60,680 nt of DNA from Thermoplasmata archaeon (GCA_028864975.1 JAGWLG010000020.1:1-60680); one strand, 5' to 3'; numbered from the stretch's first letter, positions 27,528 through 58,132 are shown. The notes: generated from the sequence alone by a model not told the origin. A program made the numbers and translations.

Positions 27528-28943
27528 CTACCCGACCGCGCCGGTCATCTCCAGTTGGATCAGGCGGTTCAACTCGAGCGCGTAGTCGACGGGCAGCTCC
27601 TTCGCGAACTCCGCCAGGAACCCCATCAGGATCAGGTGGATCGCGTCCGACTCGTTGAGCCCGCGGCTCATGAGATAGAAGATCTGCTCCTCCCCGATCT
27701 TCCCCACGACTGCCTCGTGGGTGATGGTCACGTCCTCGTACTCGTGGACCTCGTTGTACGGGTACGTGTCCGACCGGGAGATCGCGTCGGGCAGCAGCGC
27801 GTCGCAACGAACCGCGGACTTCGACCCCGTCGCGCCACGGGCGACGTGCAGCAGCCCGCGGTAGGAGGTTCTCCCTCCGCGTATCGCGATCGACTTGCCG
27901 ATGATCTTGCTCGAGGTCTCCGGGGCCGAGTGGACCGCCTTCGCCCCGGAGTCGATGATCTGGCCCTCGCTGGCGAAAGCCACGGAGAGCATGTCGCCCC
28001 GGGCGCCGCGACCCTTGAGGTAGACGGAGGGATACTTCATCGTCACCTTGCTCCCGAGGTTCCCGTCGACCCACTCGACGAGAGAGTTCTCGAAGGCATG
28101 CGCCCGCTTCGTGACCAGATTGTAGACGTTCTTCGACCAGTTCTGGACGGTCGTGTACCGGATCTTGGCATCCGCCTCAGCGATGACCTCCACCACCGCG
28201 GCATGGAGCGAGTTCTCCGAGTAGACGGGTGCCGTGCAACCCTCGATGTAGTGGACCTTCGCGCCCTTGTCGGCGATGATGAGCGTCCGCTCGAACTGCC
28301 CTACGGACTTCGCGTTGATCCGGAAGTAGGCCTGGAGAGGGATCCCCGCGTCGACCCCGGGGGGGATGTAGACAAAGCTGCCCCCCGACCAGACGGCGCT
28401 GTTGAGCGCAGAGAACTTGTTGTCGTTGTACGGAACGATCTTCCCGAAGTACTTGCGCAGGATGTCGGGGTGCTCACGGACCGCGGTGTCCGTGTCGCAG
28501 AAGATGACGCCCTTCTTCGCGAGGTCATCGCGGATCTTGTGGTAGACGGTCCCGCTGTCGTACTGGGCCCCGACCCCCGCGAAGTACTCTCGCTCCGCCT
28601 TGGGGATGCCCAAGCGGTCGAAGGTGTTCTTGATGTCCGGGGGCAGGTCCTCCCATCGCTTCTTGGTGTCGCCCTCGGCGAGCGGGTTCGCGTAGTAGGT
28701 GTAGGCGTCGAAGTCCAGGTCCGAGAGGTCCGGACCCCAATCGGGCATGGGCCGCTGGAGGAAATGCTCGTACGCCCGCAGTCGGTACTCGAGCATCCAG
28801 GAGGGCTCGTGCTTGAGGTCGGAGATCTGACGGATGATGTCGCGCGAGAGCCCCTTCGCGGTCCGTACCTTGTAGGTCTCGGGGTCCTTGAAATCGTATC
28901 GGGTGTAGTCGAGGGGGGTGATCTCGGCAGCGTTCTGAGCCAT
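27528..28943 (-). CDS. sufB: Fe-S cluster assembly protein SufB
   Basis: From ATG 28943 (GGAGG RBS 7 nt upstream): GVGAQYDS, NKFSALNSAVWSGGSF, GQFERTLI, HYIEGCTAP, SLHAAVVE, HEA.VGKI.EEQIFYLMSRG. Confidence 0.96.
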   Translation of the reverse strand: MAQNAAEITPLDYTRYDFKDPETYKVRTAKGLSRDIIRQISDLKHEPSWMLEYRLRAYEHFLQRPMPDWGPDLSDLDFDAYTYYANPLAEGDTKKRWEDLPPDIKNTFDRLGIPKAEREYFAGVGAQYDSGTVYHKIRDDLAKKGVIFCDTDTAVREHPDILRKYFGKIVPYNDNKFSALNSAVWSGGSFVYIPPGVDAGIPLQAYFRINAKSVGQFERTLIIADKGAKVHYIEGCTAPVYSENSLHAAVVEVIAEADAKIRYTTVQNWSKNVYNLVTKRAHAFENSLVEWVDGNLGSKVTMKYPSVYLKGRGARGDMLSVAFASEGQIIDSGAKAVHSAPETSSKIIGKSIAIRGGRTSYRGLLHVARGATGSKSAVRCDALLPDAISRSDTYPYNEVHEYEDVTITHEAVVGKIGEEQIFYLMSRGLNESDAIHLILMGFLAEFAKELPVDYALELNRLIQLEMTGAVG

Positions 28944-28950
28944 GGTCGGA

Positions 28951-28993
28951 CCTCCCTTGGTCAACAAATTAGAACACCATTCAGTATTTAATT
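28951..28993 (-). promoter_or_regulatory. Internal sufB promoter/RBS region
   Basis: AT-rich island in a high-GC genome. ATTAAATA TATA-like box (28985-28992, minus), GGAGG (28951-28955) and AATTA-N17-TAATT (28967-28993). Confidence 0.5.
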
Positions 28994-29044
28994 CATCGGT
29001 AGCGATTGCGCCGACATAGCTCGCGGCATGGACAGGGCCCCGCC

Positions 29045-30394
29045 TCAGCGCCCGAGGATCTGTTGCACCTTCGTCAGCGCCTCGACCAGACGGGTCGTGT
29101 CCTCCCGGTCGTTGTAGAGATAGTAGCTCGCCCGGGTCAGCGCTGGAACCCCGTAGCGCTTCATCACCAACTGAGCGCAGTGATGGCCGGCACGGACCGC
29201 CACCCCCTCGGCGTCGAGCAGGGTCGCGATATCGTGGGGGTGGATCCCCTTCAGCGAGAAGGAGAGGACCGCTTCTCGGTCGCGCCCCACGGGGGGGCCG
29301 TAGATCGTGAGGGCCTCGCCCAGGGCCGCCTTCAGCCGCTTCTCCGCGTCGAGCAAGAGCTCGTGCTCGAAGGACCGAAGCTCGTCCCACCCCACCCGAG
29401 ATAGGTAGTCGAGCGCGCGTGAGAGCACGACGGCGCCCGCCACGTTCGGGGTCCCGGCCTCGAACTTGAGGGGGGGGTCCTTGTAGGTGATGTCCGCCTT
29501 GTCCACCTCCCGGATCATCTCGCCTCCTCCCATGTAGGGCGGGAGCTTCCGAAGGACCTCCTTCTTCCCCCAGAGGACACCGATGCCCGTCGGTCCCAGG
29601 ACCTTGTGGCCAGAGAACGCCAGCAGGTCGACCCCCATCTCCTGGACGTCGATCGGGAGATGCGGGGCTCCCTGCGCCGCGTCGAGGAGCACGAGCGCAC
29701 CCGCATCGTGCGCGCGCTCGGTGAGCTCGCGGACGGGGTTCACGGTCCCCAGGACGTTCGAAACGTGGGTGAAGGTGAAGAGCTTCGTTCCGCGCGCGAG
29801 GAGGCGGTCGAGGTCCTCCCCGCGGAGCCGACCGTCGTCGGTCAGGCCCACGAAGTCGAGCTGGACCCCCGGGTGTTGGCGCAGGAGGTGCCAAGGGACG
29901 ATGTTCGAGTGATGCTCCATCTCCGTCGACACGACCCGATCGCCTCGAGCGAGGCCGCCGCGGGCAAGGGCGCCTGCGACCAGGTTGATCGCCTCGGTCG
30001 TTCCTCGGAGGAAGACCACCTCCTCGGGGTCCTTCGCGTGGAGGAACTGCGCGACCCTCGCCCGGGCCTTCTCGTAGGCCTCGGTCGCCTCTTCCGATAG
30101 CGCGTAGACCCCGCGATGGACGTTCGCGTTGAGCGTCTCGTAGAACTCCCGCTCCGCGTCGATGACCGAGCGGGGCTTCTGACTGGTGGCGGCCGAGTCC
30201 AAGTAGGTCAGCGGGCGCCCGTGGAACGACCGCTCGAGGATCGGGAAGTCCTTTCGGCACCCGTGGAGACCCCGTTCGCTCAGTTCGGGTCGGCGGGGGA
30301 CGGTCCTTGCCTCCGAGGGGGAAGCTCGCGCACGCGGGCTTCGTGGCGCTGGCCTCCCGGAGGCAGGAGCCGTGGCCGCCGCCGCACGGACCAT
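29045..30394 (-). CDS. sufS: Cysteine desulfurase, SufS family
   Basis: YLDSAATSQKP, ANVHRG, EHHSNIVPW, FSGHK (PLP Lys), FEAGTPN, RAGHHCAQ (catalytic Cys). Confidence 0.96.
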   Translation of the reverse strand: MVRAAAATAPASGRPAPRSPRARASPSEARTVPRRPELSERGLHGCRKDFPILERSFHGRPLTYLDSAATSQKPRSVIDAEREFYETLNANVHRGVYALSEEATEAYEKARARVAQFLHAKDPEEVVFLRGTTEAINLVAGALARGGLARGDRVVSTEMEHHSNIVPWHLLRQHPGVQLDFVGLTDDGRLRGEDLDRLLARGTKLFTFTHVSNVLGTVNPVRELTERAHDAGALVLLDAAQGAPHLPIDVQEMGVDLLAFSGHKVLGPTGIGVLWGKKEVLRKLPPYMGGGEMIREVDKADITYKDPPLKFEAGTPNVAGAVVLSRALDYLSRVGWDELRSFEHELLLDAEKRLKAALGEALTIYGPPVGRDREAVLSFSLKGIHPHDIATLLDAEGVAVRAGHHCAQLVMKRYGVPALTRASYYLYNDREDTTRLVEALTKVQQILGR

Positions 30395-30404
30395 GCGTGC
30401 CCCC

Positions 30405-31190
30405 TCACGCCTTTGTGGGTTGCGCGGCGGCCTGTCCGACCTTGACCCAGTCGTAGCCCTTCGCCTCGAGCTGCTCGGCGAGCTCTCGGCCCCCGGACAA
30501 CGCGACGACGCCGTCCACCATGACGTAGACGCGGTCCGGCCGCGCGTACTTCAGGATGCGCTGGTAATGCGTGATGACCAGGATCCCCCGGTCGGGTCCG
30601 CGAAGCTTGTCCACCGTCTCCCCCACCTGCTTCACGGCGTCGATGTCGAGCCCACTGTCCGGCTCGTCGAGGATCGCGAACCGGGGGTCGAGCGTCGCCA
30701 TCTGGAGCACCTCGGTGCGTTTCTTCTCCCCGCCGGAGAACCCCTCGTTCAGCGGGCGCTTGACGAAGGAGGCGTCGAGACCGAGCAAGGCGAGGTTGCG
30801 GTCCAGCTGCGCTTGGAACTGGTCCGTGTCCACTTCCTCCGCCTTGCGGGTCTGGGTGAACGAGGTCCACAGGAACTTCGAGAGCGTCACTCCCGAGACC
30901 TCGACGGGGTACTGGAAACCCAGGAAGAGCCCGGCCCGAGCGCGCTTATCGGGCGAGAGCTTGAGCAGGTCGATGTCGTCGAGGTGCGCTTCCCCCGCGG
31001 TGATGGTGTACTTCGGGTGGCCCGCGAGCGCGTAGGCGAGCGTGCTCTTCCCGGACCCGTTGGGGCCCATCAGCGCGACGAGCTCGCCGGTCCGGAGCGT
31101 CAGGTTGACCCCCTTGAGGATCTCCTTGCCTCCGACCGTCGTGTGGAGGTTCTTCACGGTGAGCACATGGCCGGGTGCGGTCGCTGCCAT
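30405..31190 (-). CDS. sufC: Fe-S cluster assembly ATPase SufC
   Basis: GPNGSGKST, FLGFQYP.E..GV, NEGFSGGEKKR, LDEPDSGLDIDA, ITHY. Start set at ATG 31190. Confidence 0.96.
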   Translation of the reverse strand: MAATAPGHVLTVKNLHTTVGGKEILKGVNLTLRTGELVALMGPNGSGKSTLAYALAGHPKYTITAGEAHLDDIDLLKLSPDKRARAGLFLGFQYPVEVSGVTLSKFLWTSFTQTRKAEEVDTDQFQAQLDRNLALLGLDASFVKRPLNEGFSGGEKKRTEVLQMATLDPRFAILDEPDSGLDIDAVKQVGETVDKLRGPDRGILVITHYQRILKYARPDRVYVMVDGVVALSGGRELAEQLEAKGYDWVKVGQAAAQPTKA

Positions 31191-31317
31191 TGTCCCGGTC
31201 GACGCAGCCCACCTCGTATATAAGTGCCAATCGGTGCCTAAATCCCGTCGTTCCATATACCTGGGGAGCATCCACCCCTACGCGGGAGGCGCTCCGGACC
31301 GAGAGCTCTGAGCCACG

Positions 31318-31989
31318 ATGGGCGCGGCCGAGATGCTCCTGGGCGAGGGCACCAAGTCGAAGATCCTGGACGAGCTCAACGAGGGACCTCGAACGGCCCG
31401 GGAGCTCGCGAAGAAGCTGGGGATCCAGGAGAGCGCGGTGCGTATGCACCTGGAGCGGCTCTCGGAGCGCGGCATCGTCTCGCCGCACTTCAGCCGGGAG
31501 GGGGTGGGAAGGCCTCGGAAGCGCTACGGGCTCACCTCCGAAGGCTTCGAGCTCTTTCCGCGGCGCTACGAGCTCATGGTGGACTCCGTCATCCAGGCGG
31601 TCCTCGAGAAGGAAGGAGAACCGTACCTCGCGGCGCTCTTCGTGCGCGCCGCTGACCGCTTCGCGGAGCGGCTGGTCGAGGACTTCCCGCAGCTCCGGAC
31701 CCCGCCTTCCGACCCCGAACGAAGGCTTCGCCTCGTCGCCCGCGTGCTCGATTCGATTGGTCAAAAGGCCGAGGTCGTGCGCGACGCGAAGGGTCCACGC
31801 CTCGTCCGAAGGAACTGCATCTTTCGCGGAAGCGCGCTCGCCCACTCGAACCTCATCTGCGAGGTGTTCGACCGTCGGCTGTTGCAGAAGTTGCTCGGTG
31901 GGGGTTCGGTCGACCTGCTCAGCTCGGTGCCGCGGGGCGCGGCCGCGTGCAGTCATCTGATCCAGCTCACCTCGGCGGCTGCCGAGTGA
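31318..31989 (+). CDS. SufR-like HTH transcriptional regulator with C-terminal Cys cluster
   Basis: N-terminal wHTH (ELAKKLGI..SAVRMHL..L, GRP.KRY.LT), FP.RY motif and C-terminal C-x13-C...C. Divergent from sufC. Confidence 0.85.
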   Translation: MGAAEMLLGEGTKSKILDELNEGPRTARELAKKLGIQESAVRMHLERLSERGIVSPHFSREGVGRPRKRYGLTSEGFELFPRRYELMVDSVIQAVLEKEGEPYLAALFVRAADRFAERLVEDFPQLRTPPSDPERRLRLVARVLDSIGQKAEVVRDAKGPRLVRRNCIFRGSALAHSNLICEVFDRRLLQKLLGGGSVDLLSSVPRGAAACSHLIQLTSAAAE

Positions 31990-32047: not shown

Positions 32048-33076
32048 ATGAACGAAGGAGTCGCCACCGAACCCACGAGCCGCCCAGGTCGGACGGCCGG
32101 AGGGCCCGAGAGCTCCTCGCTGAGCCCCACCTTTGGGCAGCCGCACGGGAACATCGCCTCCCGGATCGGGAACACCCCGCTGCTCCGTCTTCGCCGAGTG
32201 GCTGCCGCCCTCCCCAAGGGGGTTGAGCTGTGGGCGAAGGCGGAGTTCCTCAATCCGGGAGGTTCGGTCAAGGACCGCACGGCGCTCTCGATCGTCGAGA
32301 GCGGGATCGCCGAAGGGAAGTTCGGGCGGGGGAAGGTCCTTCTGGACGCATCCTCGGGGAACACCGGGATCGCCTACGCCTTCCTGGGGGCGATGTGGGG
32401 ATTTCCCGTCGAGATCGTGCTCCCTCGCAACGCCAGCGTCGAACGGCTGCGGAGGCTCCAGGCCTACGGTGCCCGGCTCACGTTCTCGGACCGGGTCGAG
32501 GGGACCGATGGCGCACAGCGCTTGGCCAAGGAACTCGCGGCGAGCCACCCTTCCCTCTACTGGTACCCCGACCAGTACAACCATCCCGCCAATCCGCTCG
32601 CCCACTACCGCACCACGGGACCGGAGATCTGGCGGGATTCGTGCGGCCTCGTGACCCACTTCGTGGCCGGGATCGGCACGGGAGGCACCATTACGGGCGT
32701 CGGCCGCTTCCTGAAGGAGCGCTCGCCCCATCTCCAGGTCGCGGGCGTGGAGCCCGCGACCGCTCTGCATGGGATCGAGGGGTTGAAGCACCTCGCGACC
32801 GCCCTCCGTCCGGGGGTCTTCGACGAGCGGGGGGTGGACACCCGTCTCAGTGTCGAGACCGAGGATGCCCAGGTCATGACCCGGAGGCTCGCCCGGGAGG
32901 AAGGGCTCTTCGTCGGGACCTCCTCGGGGGCTGCGGTCCACGCGGCGATCGAGTACGGACGAAAGCTCGAGCGAGGTGTCGTGGTCACCATCCTGCCCGA
33001 CGGCGGCGACCGTTACACGCGAGAGAAGTACTGGGAGGAAGGGTCGGAGGGCCGTGAGCGCGGCAGCGTCCCATGA
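32048..33076 (+). CDS. PLP-dependent cysteine synthase family protein (CysM-like)
   Basis: IGNTPL, K.EFLNPGGSVKDR (PLP Lys), SSGNTG, QYN..ANP..HY.TTG.EI, GIGTGGT, G.SSGA, PDGGDRY. Confidence 0.92.
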   Translation: MNEGVATEPTSRPGRTAGGPESSSLSPTFGQPHGNIASRIGNTPLLRLRRVAAALPKGVELWAKAEFLNPGGSVKDRTALSIVESGIAEGKFGRGKVLLDASSGNTGIAYAFLGAMWGFPVEIVLPRNASVERLRRLQAYGARLTFSDRVEGTDGAQRLAKELAASHPSLYWYPDQYNHPANPLAHYRTTGPEIWRDSCGLVTHFVAGIGTGGTITGVGRFLKERSPHLQVAGVEPATALHGIEGLKHLATALRPGVFDERGVDTRLSVETEDAQVMTRRLAREEGLFVGTSSGAAVHAAIEYGRKLERGVVVTILPDGGDRYTREKYWEEGSEGRERGSVP

Positions 33077-33540
33077 GCGCCGGGGTCGCACCCGCCTTCG
33101 ACGAGGTCGAGCTTAGCGCCGCCGATGACGACAAGGTCCGCTCTCACGGCCGGTCGACATACCCCGAGGAGGCCTGCGGAATGCTGGTGGGCCCCGCCCC
33201 TGCTCCAGGAGAGCGGGTTCGGCGCATCGTCGAGGTGCGTTCGGCACCCAACCGCCGGGGCGAGGACCGGGAGCACCGCTTCCTCATCCCCGCCGAGGAG
33301 CTTCGGTCGGTCGAGCGGTCGATCTCGGGAACAGGTCTCGAGGTCGTGGGGTTCTACCACTCGCACCCTGACCACCCTCCGGAACCGAGCCCTTTCGACC
33401 GGGACCACGCCTGGCCCTGGTACGCCTATCTCGTCCTCCGGGTGGTGGAAGGGGGCGCGCAGGAGCTGAACGCGTTCGAGCTCGACCCGGAACGCCGGGT
33501 TTTTCAACCCCGACGGCTGAGGGTCGTGCCGGTAACGTGA
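33073..33540 (+). CDS. JAMM/MPN+ metalloprotease (M67, Mec-like)
   Basis: YPEEACG and complete HSHPDHPPEPSPFD (HxHx7Sx2D). ATGA overlap with cysteine synthase. Confidence 0.93.
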   Translation: MSAGVAPAFDEVELSAADDDKVRSHGRSTYPEEACGMLVGPAPAPGERVRRIVEVRSAPNRRGEDREHRFLIPAEELRSVERSISGTGLEVVGFYHSHPDHPPEPSPFDRDHAWPWYAYLVLRVVEGGAQELNAFELDPERRVFQPRRLRVVPVT

Positions 33541-33589: not shown

Positions 33590-35077
33590 ATGAGCGTCGA
33601 AGTTCGGGTACCCACGGCGTTGCGCAATCTGACCGGTGGGTCCGCGACCCTCACCTCCGAGGGGCACACCGTCGGGGCCGTGCTCGAGGAGCTAGCGAGC
33701 ACGCACGCGGGTCTCAAGAGGCACCTGTTCACCGAGGACGGGAAGGTCCGCAACTTCGTCTCGATCTACCTCAACGACGAGGACGTTCGTTACCTCCAGC
33801 GCGAGGCCACGCCGGTCCGCGCCGGCGACGTGCTCTCGATCGTGCCGTCGATCGCGGGAGGGACCCCCGGTGCGGTCGCCTATCCTTCGCTATCTCGTCT
33901 CCGCGGGACCTCGGGCACCGGCGGTGCACCGACCCCGCCCCGCGCGCTCACGCCCGAGCAGATGAAGCGCTACAGCCGGCACTTGATCCTCCCGGAAGTG
34001 GGGCTCTCGGGGCAACGGAAGCTCCTCGACTCGAAGGTCCTCATTGTGGGAGCCGGGGGGCTCGGGAGCCCGCTCGCCCTCTATCTGGCCGCGGCGGGCG
34101 TGGGCACGCTCGGCATGGTCGACTTCGATGTCGTCGACGCCTCCAACCTCCAGCGACAGGTCCTCTATGGGACGAAGGACATCGGCACCGCGAAGCTCGA
34201 GGCCGCGAAGCGACGGCTTCAGGACCTCAACCCGGACGTGAAGGTCGCGCCTCACGAGGTGCGACTTTCGAGCGAGAACGCCCTCGACCTGGTCTCGCGC
34301 TACGACGTCGTGGTCGACGGGACCGACAACTTTCCGACCCGCTACCTGGTGAACGACGCGTCGGTCCTGCTCAAGAAGCCGAACGTCTACGGGTCCATCT
34401 ACCGGTTCGAGGGGCAGGTCTCCGTCTTCGATGCTCGGAAAGGGCCTTGCTATCGCTGCCTCTACCAGGAACCCCCTCCTCCCGGCCTGGTCCCTTCGTG
34501 TGCGGAGGGAGGCGTGCTCGGGGTCCTTCCGGGGATTGTCGGGAGCCTTCAGGCGGTGGAGACGCTCAAGGTGCTGCTCGGGAAGGGCGACACGCTCGTG
34601 GGCCGTCTCCTGCTCTTTGACGCCATGGGGTTGCGGTTCCGCGAGCTCAAGGTCCGCAAGAACCCCGACTGCGCCCTCTGTGGCCCGAACGCCACGCAGA
34701 AGGGGCTCATCGACTACGAGCAGTTCTGCGGGATCGGGAAGGAGACGGAGGAGGTCACCGGGCACGAGATCGACCCGGAGGAGCTGAAGACGAAGCTCGA
34801 CCATGGCGAAGCGCTCATCCTTGTGGACGTGCGGGAGCCTGGCGAGTTCGAGATCGCGCACCTCCAAGGCGCGAAGCTCATCCCGCGGGCGTCGCTCCCG
34901 GAACGGCTTGGGGAGCTCTCCACCGCGGACGACCTTGTCGTCTACTGCAAGATGGGGGGCCGCAGCGCGCAAGCGACGAAGTTCCTTCTGGAGATGGGCT
35001 TCCAGAAAGTGCGCAATCTCAAGGGTGGGATCGACGCGTGGTCGGAGCGGATCGACCCTTCCCTTCCACGGTACTGA
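33590..35077 (+). CDS. Fusion: MoaD/ThiS-like ubiquitin-fold carrier + MoeB/E1 adenylyltransferase + rhodanese
   Basis: aa 1-91 ubiquitin fold ending VPSIAGG; E1 motifs RYSRH, GAGGLG, DFD.VD.SNLQRQ, CYRC, CAEGGV, CALC; rhodanese LVDVRE..E and VYCKMGGRS. Confidence 0.93.
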   Translation: MSVEVRVPTALRNLTGGSATLTSEGHTVGAVLEELASTHAGLKRHLFTEDGKVRNFVSIYLNDEDVRYLQREATPVRAGDVLSIVPSIAGGTPGAVAYPSLSRLRGTSGTGGAPTPPRALTPEQMKRYSRHLILPEVGLSGQRKLLDSKVLIVGAGGLGSPLALYLAAAGVGTLGMVDFDVVDASNLQRQVLYGTKDIGTAKLEAAKRRLQDLNPDVKVAPHEVRLSSENALDLVSRYDVVVDGTDNFPTRYLVNDASVLLKKPNVYGSIYRFEGQVSVFDARKGPCYRCLYQEPPPPGLVPSCAEGGVLGVLPGIVGSLQAVETLKVLLGKGDTLVGRLLLFDAMGLRFRELKVRKNPDCALCGPNATQKGLIDYEQFCGIGKETEEVTGHEIDPEELKTKLDHGEALILVDVREPGEFEIAHLQGAKLIPRASLPERLGELSTADDLVVYCKMGGRSAQATKFLLEMGFQKVRNLKGGIDAWSERIDPSLPRY

Positions 35078-35209: not shown

Positions 35210-35839
35210 ATGTCCGAGATAGGTTCGTCCCCACCGGGTTCACCTCTCTCGGCGGGACCCGCCCCGCCGCTCCGTCCGCCGCCATCCCAAGGTCGCAGGA
35301 AGAAGTTGGGGATCGTCGTAGGTGTCGTGGTGGTGATCGCCTCTGTCGGTCTCGCGGGCGCCTGGTACATGGGTCTTTTTGCAGGGTCCGGGACCGTCGC
35401 GATGTACATCCACGACGCGCCCTGCGTCTGCACTCACGTCTACGTCACCTTCACCCAGGTCCAAGTGCACAAGGCCAACGGGACCATGATGGGCAGCGGC
35501 GGATGGTTCGTGATCAGTAGCTCGGCCCAGACCTGGGACCTGCTCCGGTTGAACGGGAGCGCTTTGGAAACGCTCCTTGCGTCCGCGAACGTCCCTGCGG
35601 GCCACTACACCATGGTCCAGCTGACCGTGCAGAACGTGACCGTCGACACGGTCGCGGGGGCCTCGATCGTGGCGGAGGTTCCGAACTCCTCGGTCCACAT
35701 CGAGGGGCCCTTCGACATCACCGCGGGGTCGACCACGACGCTCACGCTCGACGTGAACCTGGGCACGAGCCTGCACGTCAACGCGAACGGGACCGCGGTG
35801 TTCACCCCGAACATCGCATTGGTCGTGGGCAGTCGGTAG
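35210..35839 (+). CDS. DUF4382-like membrane-anchored protein
   Basis: N-terminal TM helix, then 'VAMYIHDAP....HVYVTF..VQVH...W......DLL.L...L.S.NVPAG.YT.V.L'. Confidence 0.75.
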   Translation: MSEIGSSPPGSPLSAGPAPPLRPPPSQGRRKKLGIVVGVVVVIASVGLAGAWYMGLFAGSGTVAMYIHDAPCVCTHVYVTFTQVQVHKANGTMMGSGGWFVISSSAQTWDLLRLNGSALETLLASANVPAGHYTMVQLTVQNVTVDTVAGASIVAEVPNSSVHIEGPFDITAGSTTTLTLDVNLGTSLHVNANGTAVFTPNIALVVGSR

Positions 35840-57385: not shown

Positions 57386-58132
57386 TCAACCTTTCGACCC
57401 CTTCTCTTTCGGGGCCAGACGGGAGACGTACTTCTGGATCTGCTCGCTGTTCAGCCGAGTGAAGCCCTTGTCCTTCTGGATGGTGCACATCTCGACGGAG
57501 TTGAGGTTCGAGGGGTCCTCCATCGATTGCTGAAGTCCTTCGAGCGCCAGGAGCGCCGCGGCCTCGATGTCCATCCCGGTCTGGTATTTCTGTTCGAAGA
57601 GCTCCATCACCGGCGTGCGGTTCCCGCCGATCGAGGAGGCCTTGAAGGAGGTCAGGGAACCCGAGGGGTCGGTCTCGAAGAGGTGCACGCCCGTGTCGTC
57701 GTACCCACCGATGAGGAGGGCGGTCCCGAAGGGGCGGACCCCTCCATACTGCGTATACTGTTGCTTGTAGTCGCAGATCCGGCGCACCAGGACCTCGAGA
57801 GAGATGGGCTCGGCGTAGGTGACACGGTTGATCTGGGAGGCCAGGCGAGCGTAGTCGACGAGCACGCGCGCGTCGGCCACCAGACCTGCGGTCGCGGCTC
57901 CGATGTGTTCATCGATCTGGTGGATCTTCTCGACGCTGGAGGCCTCCGCCAGCTTCGGGTTGGGGATGCGTCGGTCGGCGACGAGCACGACCCCGTCCTT
58001 CGCGACGACCCCGGCCGTGGCCGTGCCGCGGCGGACCGACTCTCGAGCGTACTCGACCTGGAACAGTCGGCCGTCGGGGGAGAAGACGGTGATCGCGCGG
58101 TCGTAGGCCATCTGGCCCGGTTGCATCTCCAT
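57386..58132 (-). CDS. psmA: Proteasome subunit alpha
   Basis: YDRAITVFSPDGRLFQVEYARE, SGLVADAR-like GLVADAR, YTQYGGVRPFG.ALLIGG. Confidence 0.97.
   Translation of the reverse strand: MEMQPGQMAYDRAITVFSPDGRLFQVEYARESVRRGTATAGVVAKDGVVLVADRRIPNPKLAEASSVEKIHQIDEHIGAATAGLVADARVLVDYARLASQINRVTYAEPISLEVLVRRICDYKQQYTQYGGVRPFGTALLIGGYDDTGVHLFETDPSGSLTSFKASSIGGNRTPVMELFEQKYQTGMDIEAAALLALEGLQQSMEDPSNLNSVEMCTIQKDKGFTRLNSEQIQKYVSRLAPKEKGSKG

Follow-up and report, generated by a model that had tools for sequence, protein, structure and literature searches.

How can a ubiquitin-like (Ubl) sulfur carrier be activated when it is encoded in one chain with the very enzyme that would activate it? The question is raised by a gene at 33590..35077 (+ strand) in a 60,680-nucleotide (nt) stretch of DNA from a Thermoplasmata archaeon (GCA_028864975.1 JAGWLG010000020.1:1-60680), which we call the window. 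In this gene a CysO-like carrier ending in Gly-Gly (GG) reads directly into an E1 adenylation domain and a rhodanese. Adenylation by an E1 requires a free C-terminal carboxylate. As encoded, 404 residues continue past the last glycine of the carrier, Gly91, leaving no free carboxylate upon it. From its sequence the locus is a cysM-mec-cysO::moeZ operon, a putative thiocarboxylate pathway to cysteine with carrier and activator joined, and the carrier is probably released by a cut after GG made by the JAMM metalloprotease of the same operon. The window belongs, as contig C75, to a 3.6-Mb bin assembled from metagenomic data, with 124 contigs and a completeness of 89.6%.

The carrier-E1 gene and its operon

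The gene is a frame of 495 codons with no internal stop, corresponding to a protein of 53.3 kDa. Its N-terminal part (33590..33862, aa 1-91, + strand, as for all parts of the gene) is a beta-grasp sulfur carrier with Gly90-Gly91 at its C-terminal end. It is matched by the Pfam ThiS profile (PF02597, aa 5-91, E 2e-13), the end of which falls on Gly91. The terminal SIAGG occupies aa 87-91, and the two glycine codons (nt 33857-33862) are followed by ACC CCC GGT, encoding Thr-Pro-Gly. In the PDB the carrier matches best M. tuberculosis CysO (3dwg_C, E 3e-17), followed by another CysO-like chain from an actinobacterium (4n6e_B, E 4e-17), and each of these chains terminates at the position aligned with Gly91. 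A linker (33863..33949, aa 92-120, TPGAVAYPSLSRLRGTSGTGGAPTPPRAL), rich in G, P, S, T and A and predicted to be disordered, connects the carrier to an adenylation domain of the MoeZ/MoeB type (33950..34744), and this is followed by a rhodanese domain (34775..35047; Pfam PF00581, aa 396-486, E 4e-21) with the active-site loop CKMGGR that includes Cys453.

The E1 domain is matched by Pfam ThiF (PF00899, aa 128-362, E 1e-85), by NCBIfam-type models of MoeB and MoeZ, and in the PDB by Uba4 (6yub_A, E 3e-62) and also by ThiF and MoeB. The MoeB model PRK08762 gives 485.9 bits, above its cut-off of 449, whereas the MoeZ models remain under theirs (PRK07878, 488.8 against 647 bits; PRK07411, 510.9 against 633 bits). 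The characteristic motifs are all present, with the arginine-finger motif RYSRH at aa 127-131, the nucleotide-binding glycine motif GAGGLG at 154-159, the zinc cysteines in CYRC (287-290) and CALC (361-364), and the cross-over loop cysteine Cys304 within SCAEGG. All these motif residues (RYSRH, GAGGLG, C287/C290, C361/C364 and C304) are invariant across 45 fused homologues, as are Cys453 and Arg458 of the rhodanese.

We built an AlphaFold2 model from the alignment of these 45 homologues. All three domains are predicted with confidence (mean predicted local distance difference test score, pLDDT, 81.6; predicted template modeling score 0.70), the carrier domain at a pLDDT of 84-94. The value falls below 50 at residues 89-114, comprising the GG and most of the linker. 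The predicted disorder around the GG and linker suits access by a protease. The first 12 or so residues of the linker are conserved only inside the Thermoplasmata clade, where its start (aa 92-104, nt 33863-33900) has the pattern [ST]PGAVAYP[SA][LM]S[RK]L, missing from bacterial linkers. This conserved start, although predicted to be disordered, may be a recognition or docking element.

We also considered whether a free E1 could arise from an internal start at Met125, just before RYSRH, and rejected this. The residue is L, I or V in homologues, and split genes have a separate 'MAT' start for the E1, 15-25 residues upstream of this position. Such a start is rejected also because the GG of the carrier would remain unfreed anyway.

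The fusion is the last gene of an operon on one strand, preceded in order by an ArsR-type regulator, cysM and a JAMM gene. The CysM-type cysteine synthase (32048..33076, + strand; Pfam PALP, E 4e-70), a pyridoxal phosphate (PLP) enzyme of fold type II, has the motifs SVKDR with the Schiff-base lysine (aa 73-77) and SGNTG (aa 103-107). It scores 341.6 bits with the NCBIfam cysM model (TIGR01138), under the cut-off of 394.2, and its top PDB matches are enterobacterial CysM (E 7e-70), with M. tuberculosis CysM (3dwg_A) at E 6e-56. The start of the JAMM gene (33073..33540, + strand) overlaps the cysM stop in ATGA, and a spacer of 49 nt separates it from the fusion. It encodes a Mec-like JAMM/MPN+ metalloprotease (Pfam Prok-JAB, E 6e-21; top PDB match 2kcq_A, E 5e-27) with an intact metal site, EEACG at aa 32-36 and HSHPDHPPEPSPFD at aa 96-109 (E...HSH-x7-S-xx-D). 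The adjacent cysM, which goes unmentioned in the original prediction made from the sequence alone, fixes the pathway as putative thiocarboxylate-dependent cysteine synthesis, in which the JAMM would have a known second function, the release of cysteine in the manner of Mec.

The same uninterrupted frame is found in three independently assembled genomes of the same genus (85-86% identity), and in 21 of the 24 other genomes of the family that were searched one continuous match covers both carrier and E1. When residues 1-125 were compared with the protein collection, 309 of the proteins matched had the length of the fusion; among the matches listed, ThiS and ThiF are both present in 120 of 120, mostly with rhodanese in addition. 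A scan of species-representative genomes gave more than 500 relatives, the best 80 of which belong to Thermoplasmata, Acidobacteriota, Gemmatimonadota, Chloroflexota, Bacteroidota and others.

We analyzed 91 loci from two domains of life in detail, 75 fused and 16 split. At the 75 fused loci the frame runs on from the carrier past GG into the E1, and GG is invariant in the 45 aligned fused homologues and in all 91 loci. The possibility raised earlier that homologues might lack the internal GG is therefore removed. From GG to RYSRH the distance varies between 10 and 45 residues in the fused loci, with little conservation of sequence and always in frame. In 74 of the 75 the fusion is preceded by the genes for CysM and JAMM. 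Of the 91 loci, 88 have the JAMM gene on the same strand and 86 have it no more than 300 nt away. The fusion layout is real and not rare. The original prediction of a carrier ending in GG that runs without a stop through a linker of about 30 residues into E1 and rhodanese, with an adjacent JAMM gene, is confirmed in all these parts.

The residue immediately following GG (P1') is S, A, T or V in 69 of the 75 fused genes, and the next (P2') is proline in 35. A rule requiring a small residue at P1' was dropped, as Arg is the commonest residue after GG in standalone relatives.

Residues beyond the glycine pair in split and standalone relatives

In each of the 16 split loci the carrier keeps between 1 and 12 residues past GG. 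In most of them just one stop codon separates the carrier from an E1 that continues the frame and begins with a start codon of its own. Comparison of the frames indicates that fused and split forms differ by one in-frame stop codon.

A similar property is seen in carriers that stand alone. Among the 120 short proteins of the collection most closely related to the carrier, 7 are fragments of fused genes, leaving 113. Of these nearest standalone carriers 112 have a tail past GG (1-3 residues in 62, longer in 50), and a single one ends at GG. Extension past GG is thus the rule in this carrier clade, unlike actinobacterial CysO, with the E1 fusion as its extreme form.

The sister genus g5 provides a natural fission of the fusion. 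In the genomes G022, G012 and G017 the E1-rhodanese is unfused, and a search of these three found neither an operon-type JAMM nor cysM; each retains a different JAMM paralogue. In G022 (L101:758-2929) the carrier gene ends exactly in GG-TGA, two bases ahead of the start of the E1, and the same ArsR-type regulator remains in front of both. Fission in g5 thus goes with loss of the JAMM and cysM.

Some of the tails in bacterial relatives are distinctive in composition. One and the same conserved pentapeptide, RCICS, follows GG at the end of 17 of the 113 standalone carriers, mostly from Terriglobia/Acidobacteriota, and other Cys-rich tails (CCCCL, CCCPSSR and similar) are present in 8 more. P0135, P0137, P0148, P0150, P0174, P0175 and P0208 are among the proteins with such cysteine-bearing tails. 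At locus L082 (L082:7001-7300) an RCICS-tailed carrier lies within the usual cysM-JAMM-E1 operon, and no tail-modifying gene is evident among its neighbors. A further protein, P0140 (235 aa), has a Prok-JAB domain fused ahead of a CysO-like carrier with a two-residue tail, a different fusion that ties the protease to the same family of carriers.

Probable release of the carrier and rival explanations

Because an E1 adenylates only a free C-terminal carboxylate, the encoded chain would have to be cut after Gly91 in order to act as a carrier. The JAMM of the operon is the likely agent because of the tails of the split forms, the tails of the standalone carriers and the pattern in g5. We consider it probable, on this comparative evidence, that the locus encodes a cysteine pathway of the CysO/CysM/Mec/MoeZ type in which the JAMM first trims the carrier by a cut after GG and, in a later step, liberates cysteine from it.

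The pathway would then operate as follows. The 53-kDa precursor would be translated, and the operon JAMM would hydrolyze the Gly91-Thr92 bond to generate a carrier of ~9.6 kDa (9.6-9.7 kDa as computed) with C-terminal GG and an E1-rhodanese of ~43.6 kDa. The predicted new ends are ...IVPSIAGG for the carrier and, for the E1 part, TPGAVAYPSLSR (TPGAV...). The E1 would adenylate the GG carboxylate, and the persulfide of rhodanese Cys453 would convert it into the thiocarboxylate. CysM would transfer the carrier sulfur to an activated serine, such as O-phosphoserine or O-acetylserine, and an S-to-N shift would give carrier-GG-Cys. A second cut after GG by the same JAMM would release cysteine and recycle the carrier. 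Maturation and release of the product would thus be one and the same reaction, hydrolysis of the peptide bond that follows GG. The original prediction went further in speculating that such a cut might give a 1:1 stoichiometry of carrier to E1 and act as a proteolytic on-switch.

Both activities have precedents. Mec reportedly hydrolyzes CysO-Cys, as found by Burns et al. in 2005. QbsE (GG-CF), which has the E1-rhodanese QbsC as partner, is trimmed by QbsD, and HcyS-Ala by HcyD, the residues past GG being removed in both cases by the JAMM of the same cluster. Those tails comprise one or two residues, whereas the 'tail' of the present carrier runs to 404 residues and consists of the E1 itself. 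Linear fusions are also cut after GG by JAMM enzymes, namely MoaD-MoaE (Deinococcus, DRJAMM; PMC8832034) and SAMP fusions (SAMP1-MoaE, HvJAMM1; PMC4443979), and the fused MoaX of M. tuberculosis must be cleaved for activity (PMC4326299). These systems resemble the present one in having a carrier fused to a partner enzyme. The cut after GG is required for activity, and the JAMM does make it where this was tested. They differ in that the partner is the downstream sulfur acceptor MoaE, while here it is the activating E1. That JAB proteins cut Ubls fused to other proteins was proposed by Iyer et al. in 2006 (PMC1779556).

A number of points weigh against this assignment. We found no experimental study of any carrier-E1 fusion in the literature. 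The adjacency of the JAMM is equally well explained by a role as Mec alone, a role that M. tuberculosis retains for a CysO with no residues past GG. The loss in g5 involved cysM together with the JAMM, so that the roles of maturase and Mec are inseparable there, and it is a single evolutionary event. The CysM is closer to that of E. coli and Salmonella than to the mycobacterial O-phosphoserine enzyme. One fused locus, L069 from Omnitrophota, has cysM and no JAMM detectable alongside. Finally, there are two further JAMM-like matches in the genome, on contigs C119 and C2, and that on C119, a second Prok-JAB paralogue, could do the cutting.

The last two observations lead to the main rival, in which the fusion is cut by another protease such as the C119 paralogue, and the operon JAMM is solely of Mec type, releasing cysteine from carrier-Cys. 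Mec-type JAMMs do accompany a CysO that needs no trimming, as in M. tuberculosis, and the solved CysO chains end at the aligned GG; moreover this genome contains a second Prok-JAB gene, and so does each of the four g5 relatives that were searched. We nevertheless regard this explanation as unlikely. Maturation and cysteine release are chemically identical, each being a cut after GG; a JAMM gene adjoins 74 of the 75 fusions and 14 of the 16 split genes with tails; and G022, which has lost the operon JAMM and keeps the paralogue, has a carrier with no tail. It is quite improbable that the fusion is never cut, the N-terminal Ubl being a regulatory or docking domain of the E1 and CysM using free sulfide, although Ubl-ThiF fusions that co-occur with a separate ThiS have been interpreted in this way (PMC1779556), and the CysM is closest to sulfide- or thiosulfate-using enterobacterial CysM. 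The operon has no separate CysO-like gene, and the fused domain is itself the CysO homologue. In addition an invariant GG beside a freely varying linker reflects what a carrier needs and not what a docking domain needs, and fused and split forms interconvert via one in-frame stop codon.

The released Ubl might alternatively serve mainly in protein tagging linked to the proteasome, in the manner of SAMP or Urm1, and not in sulfur transfer, an option that had been offered in the original prediction. SAMPs and Urm1 perform both tagging and sulfur transfer, and there are weak matches to the NCBIfam SAMP1 and UbaA models. Both are under the curated cut-offs, however (53.7 against 60 bits and 349.8 against 450 bits, respectively), and it is cysM that is conserved as the partner, rather than genes of the proteasome or E2-like type. 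The window does contain the proteasome gene that had been noted as psmA, in the form of a proteasome-family gene at 57479-58036 (- strand), one of four proteasome-family matches in the genome, but it is ~22 kb from the fusion and unlinked to the operon. We therefore find tagging as the main function very improbable. The last alternative would be an error of sequencing or assembly that hides a stop or frameshift after GG, at position 33863, and the origin of the genome in a metagenome-assembled bin of many contigs might suggest this. Its probability is negligible, contradicted as it is by the same open frame, found again in three congeneric genomes and at 75 loci from several phyla, with linkers whose lengths vary in frame. 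Release of the carrier after GG by the adjacent JAMM, as originally proposed, remains the best-supported reading, given the invariant GG, the JAMM in 74 of 75 fused loci, the tails and the GG-stop of G022, and its support is comparative.

The fusion is the only match to PF00899 in the genome at its stated completeness. There are in addition three further carriers of the ThiS family, each ending exactly in GG. One is MoaD adjoining MoaE on contig C104. A second, of 92 aa, lies on contig C35 (L004:47-2962) between a ThrC-like PLP enzyme and homoserine dehydrogenase, and the third, also on C35, adjoins a BNR-repeat protein. The set of ThrC-like enzyme, carrier and homoserine dehydrogenase resembles the MetM/MetO route to homocysteine, which belongs to Streptomyces. 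This carrier-dependent route is listed in PMC13759103. Because no other E1 of the ThiF family was found in the genome, the released E1 probably also serves the separate MoaD and the MetO-like carrier, as the general carrier-activating enzyme of the cell. This would be a further likeness to mycobacteria, where MoeZR has a dual role and serves both CysO and MoaD (PMC3227635).

A more far-reaching reading may be considered, which we think doubtful. Synthesis as a precursor would be the rule in this carrier clade and the operon JAMM an obligatory maturase. Because the only E1 in this archaeon is made attached to CysO, one cut might gate all the thiocarboxylate pathways of the cell, to cysteine, to molybdopterin via MoaD and to homocysteine via the MetM/MetO-like pair, acting as a zymogen-like point of control over sulfur metabolism. 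As part of the same tentative reading, the RCICS tails of the bacterial relatives would represent a further function released by that cut.

If the cut were confirmed, this would be the first demonstrated E1 that is made as one chain with its own Ubl, and the Mec-type JAMM would be both the maturase and the enzyme that releases the product. Prediction of the principle dates from 2006, and MoaD-MoaE fusions have already demonstrated it, so confirmation would extend and not change existing understanding. What is new here is the occurrence of tails past GG as a rule, the difference of one stop between fused and split forms, the fission in g5 with loss of the JAMM and cysM, and the single E1. The genome, in which a lone E1 is accompanied by its fused carrier and by three free ones, is a clean test bed. 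The family occurs in hundreds of soil Acidobacteriota, Gemmatimonadota and Thermoplasmata, which suggests that cysteine synthesis of the carrier-dependent kind is widespread in soil.

Known systems, origin and surrounding genes

The nearest characterized system is CysO/CysM/Mec+/MoeZR of M. tuberculosis, which has the same four activities, with carrier, synthase and hydrolase in one operon. The CysO of that species has GG as its terminus, and its moeZ is located outside the operon. Here by contrast the carrier is fused in frame to the E1, the E1 is inside the operon and the host is an archaeon; the affinity of the CysM for the enterobacterial enzymes is another difference. In eukaryotes Uba4 has the same architecture of E1 plus rhodanese and the same thiocarboxylate chemistry, but its carrier Urm1 is the product of a separate gene, undergoes no processing and is directed to tRNA thiolation.

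The fusion design is common, and the locus is a new example of both an operon type published in 2006 and an archaeal fusion family published in 2024. Operon type 4c of Iyer, Burroughs and Aravind (PMC1779556) comprises ThiS/MoaD, E1-rhodanese, JAB and cysteine synthase. This is the same set of genes, in taxa that overlap with ours (Solibacter, Chloroflexus, Salinibacter), but in the available portion of the paper the table describes the fusion of E1 and rhodanese only, with no mention of a carrier in front. The moaD-moeBR fusion clusters 356.2/356.3 in 'Fusion/fission protein family identification in Archaea' (PMC11237513) have the same fusion of carrier, MoeB and rhodanese, from uncultured Euryarchaeota. 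They are filed under molybdenum cofactor synthesis, and the available text does not discuss the cysM/JAMM context or any need for this fusion to be cleaved. The authors suggest transfer from Acidobacteria on the basis of identity above 55%.

In an unrooted FastTree phylogeny of 70 fused proteins, 16 from Thermoplasmata form a single clade with good support, and another two archaeal proteins sit as a pair among bacterial sequences. It is likely that the fusion has moved between domains of life. Relatives of the same order that lie outside the family have an ordinary E1 without rhodanese. A bacterial origin of the archaeal fusion is plausible because of these ordinary enzymes and the suggestion of an acidobacterial source in PMC11237513.

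The remaining genes of this part of the window can be described briefly. Directly downstream of the fusion is a gene for a DUF4382 protein (35210-35839, + strand; Pfam E 6e-24) with an N-terminal hydrophobic segment and no evident link to the operon. At the other end, the first gene of the operon encodes the ArsR-type winged-helix regulator (31318..31989, + strand; Pfam HTH_5, E 2e-11), the C-terminal part of which bears cysteine. Divergent from it is a set of Suf-type genes for Fe-S assembly (27528-31271, - strand), including a SufC-like ABC ATPase (30405-31271, - strand) and a SufS-like class V aminotransferase (29045-30394, - strand) beside a SufB/D-like gene. The divergent arrangement of regulator and Suf genes is also kept in G022.

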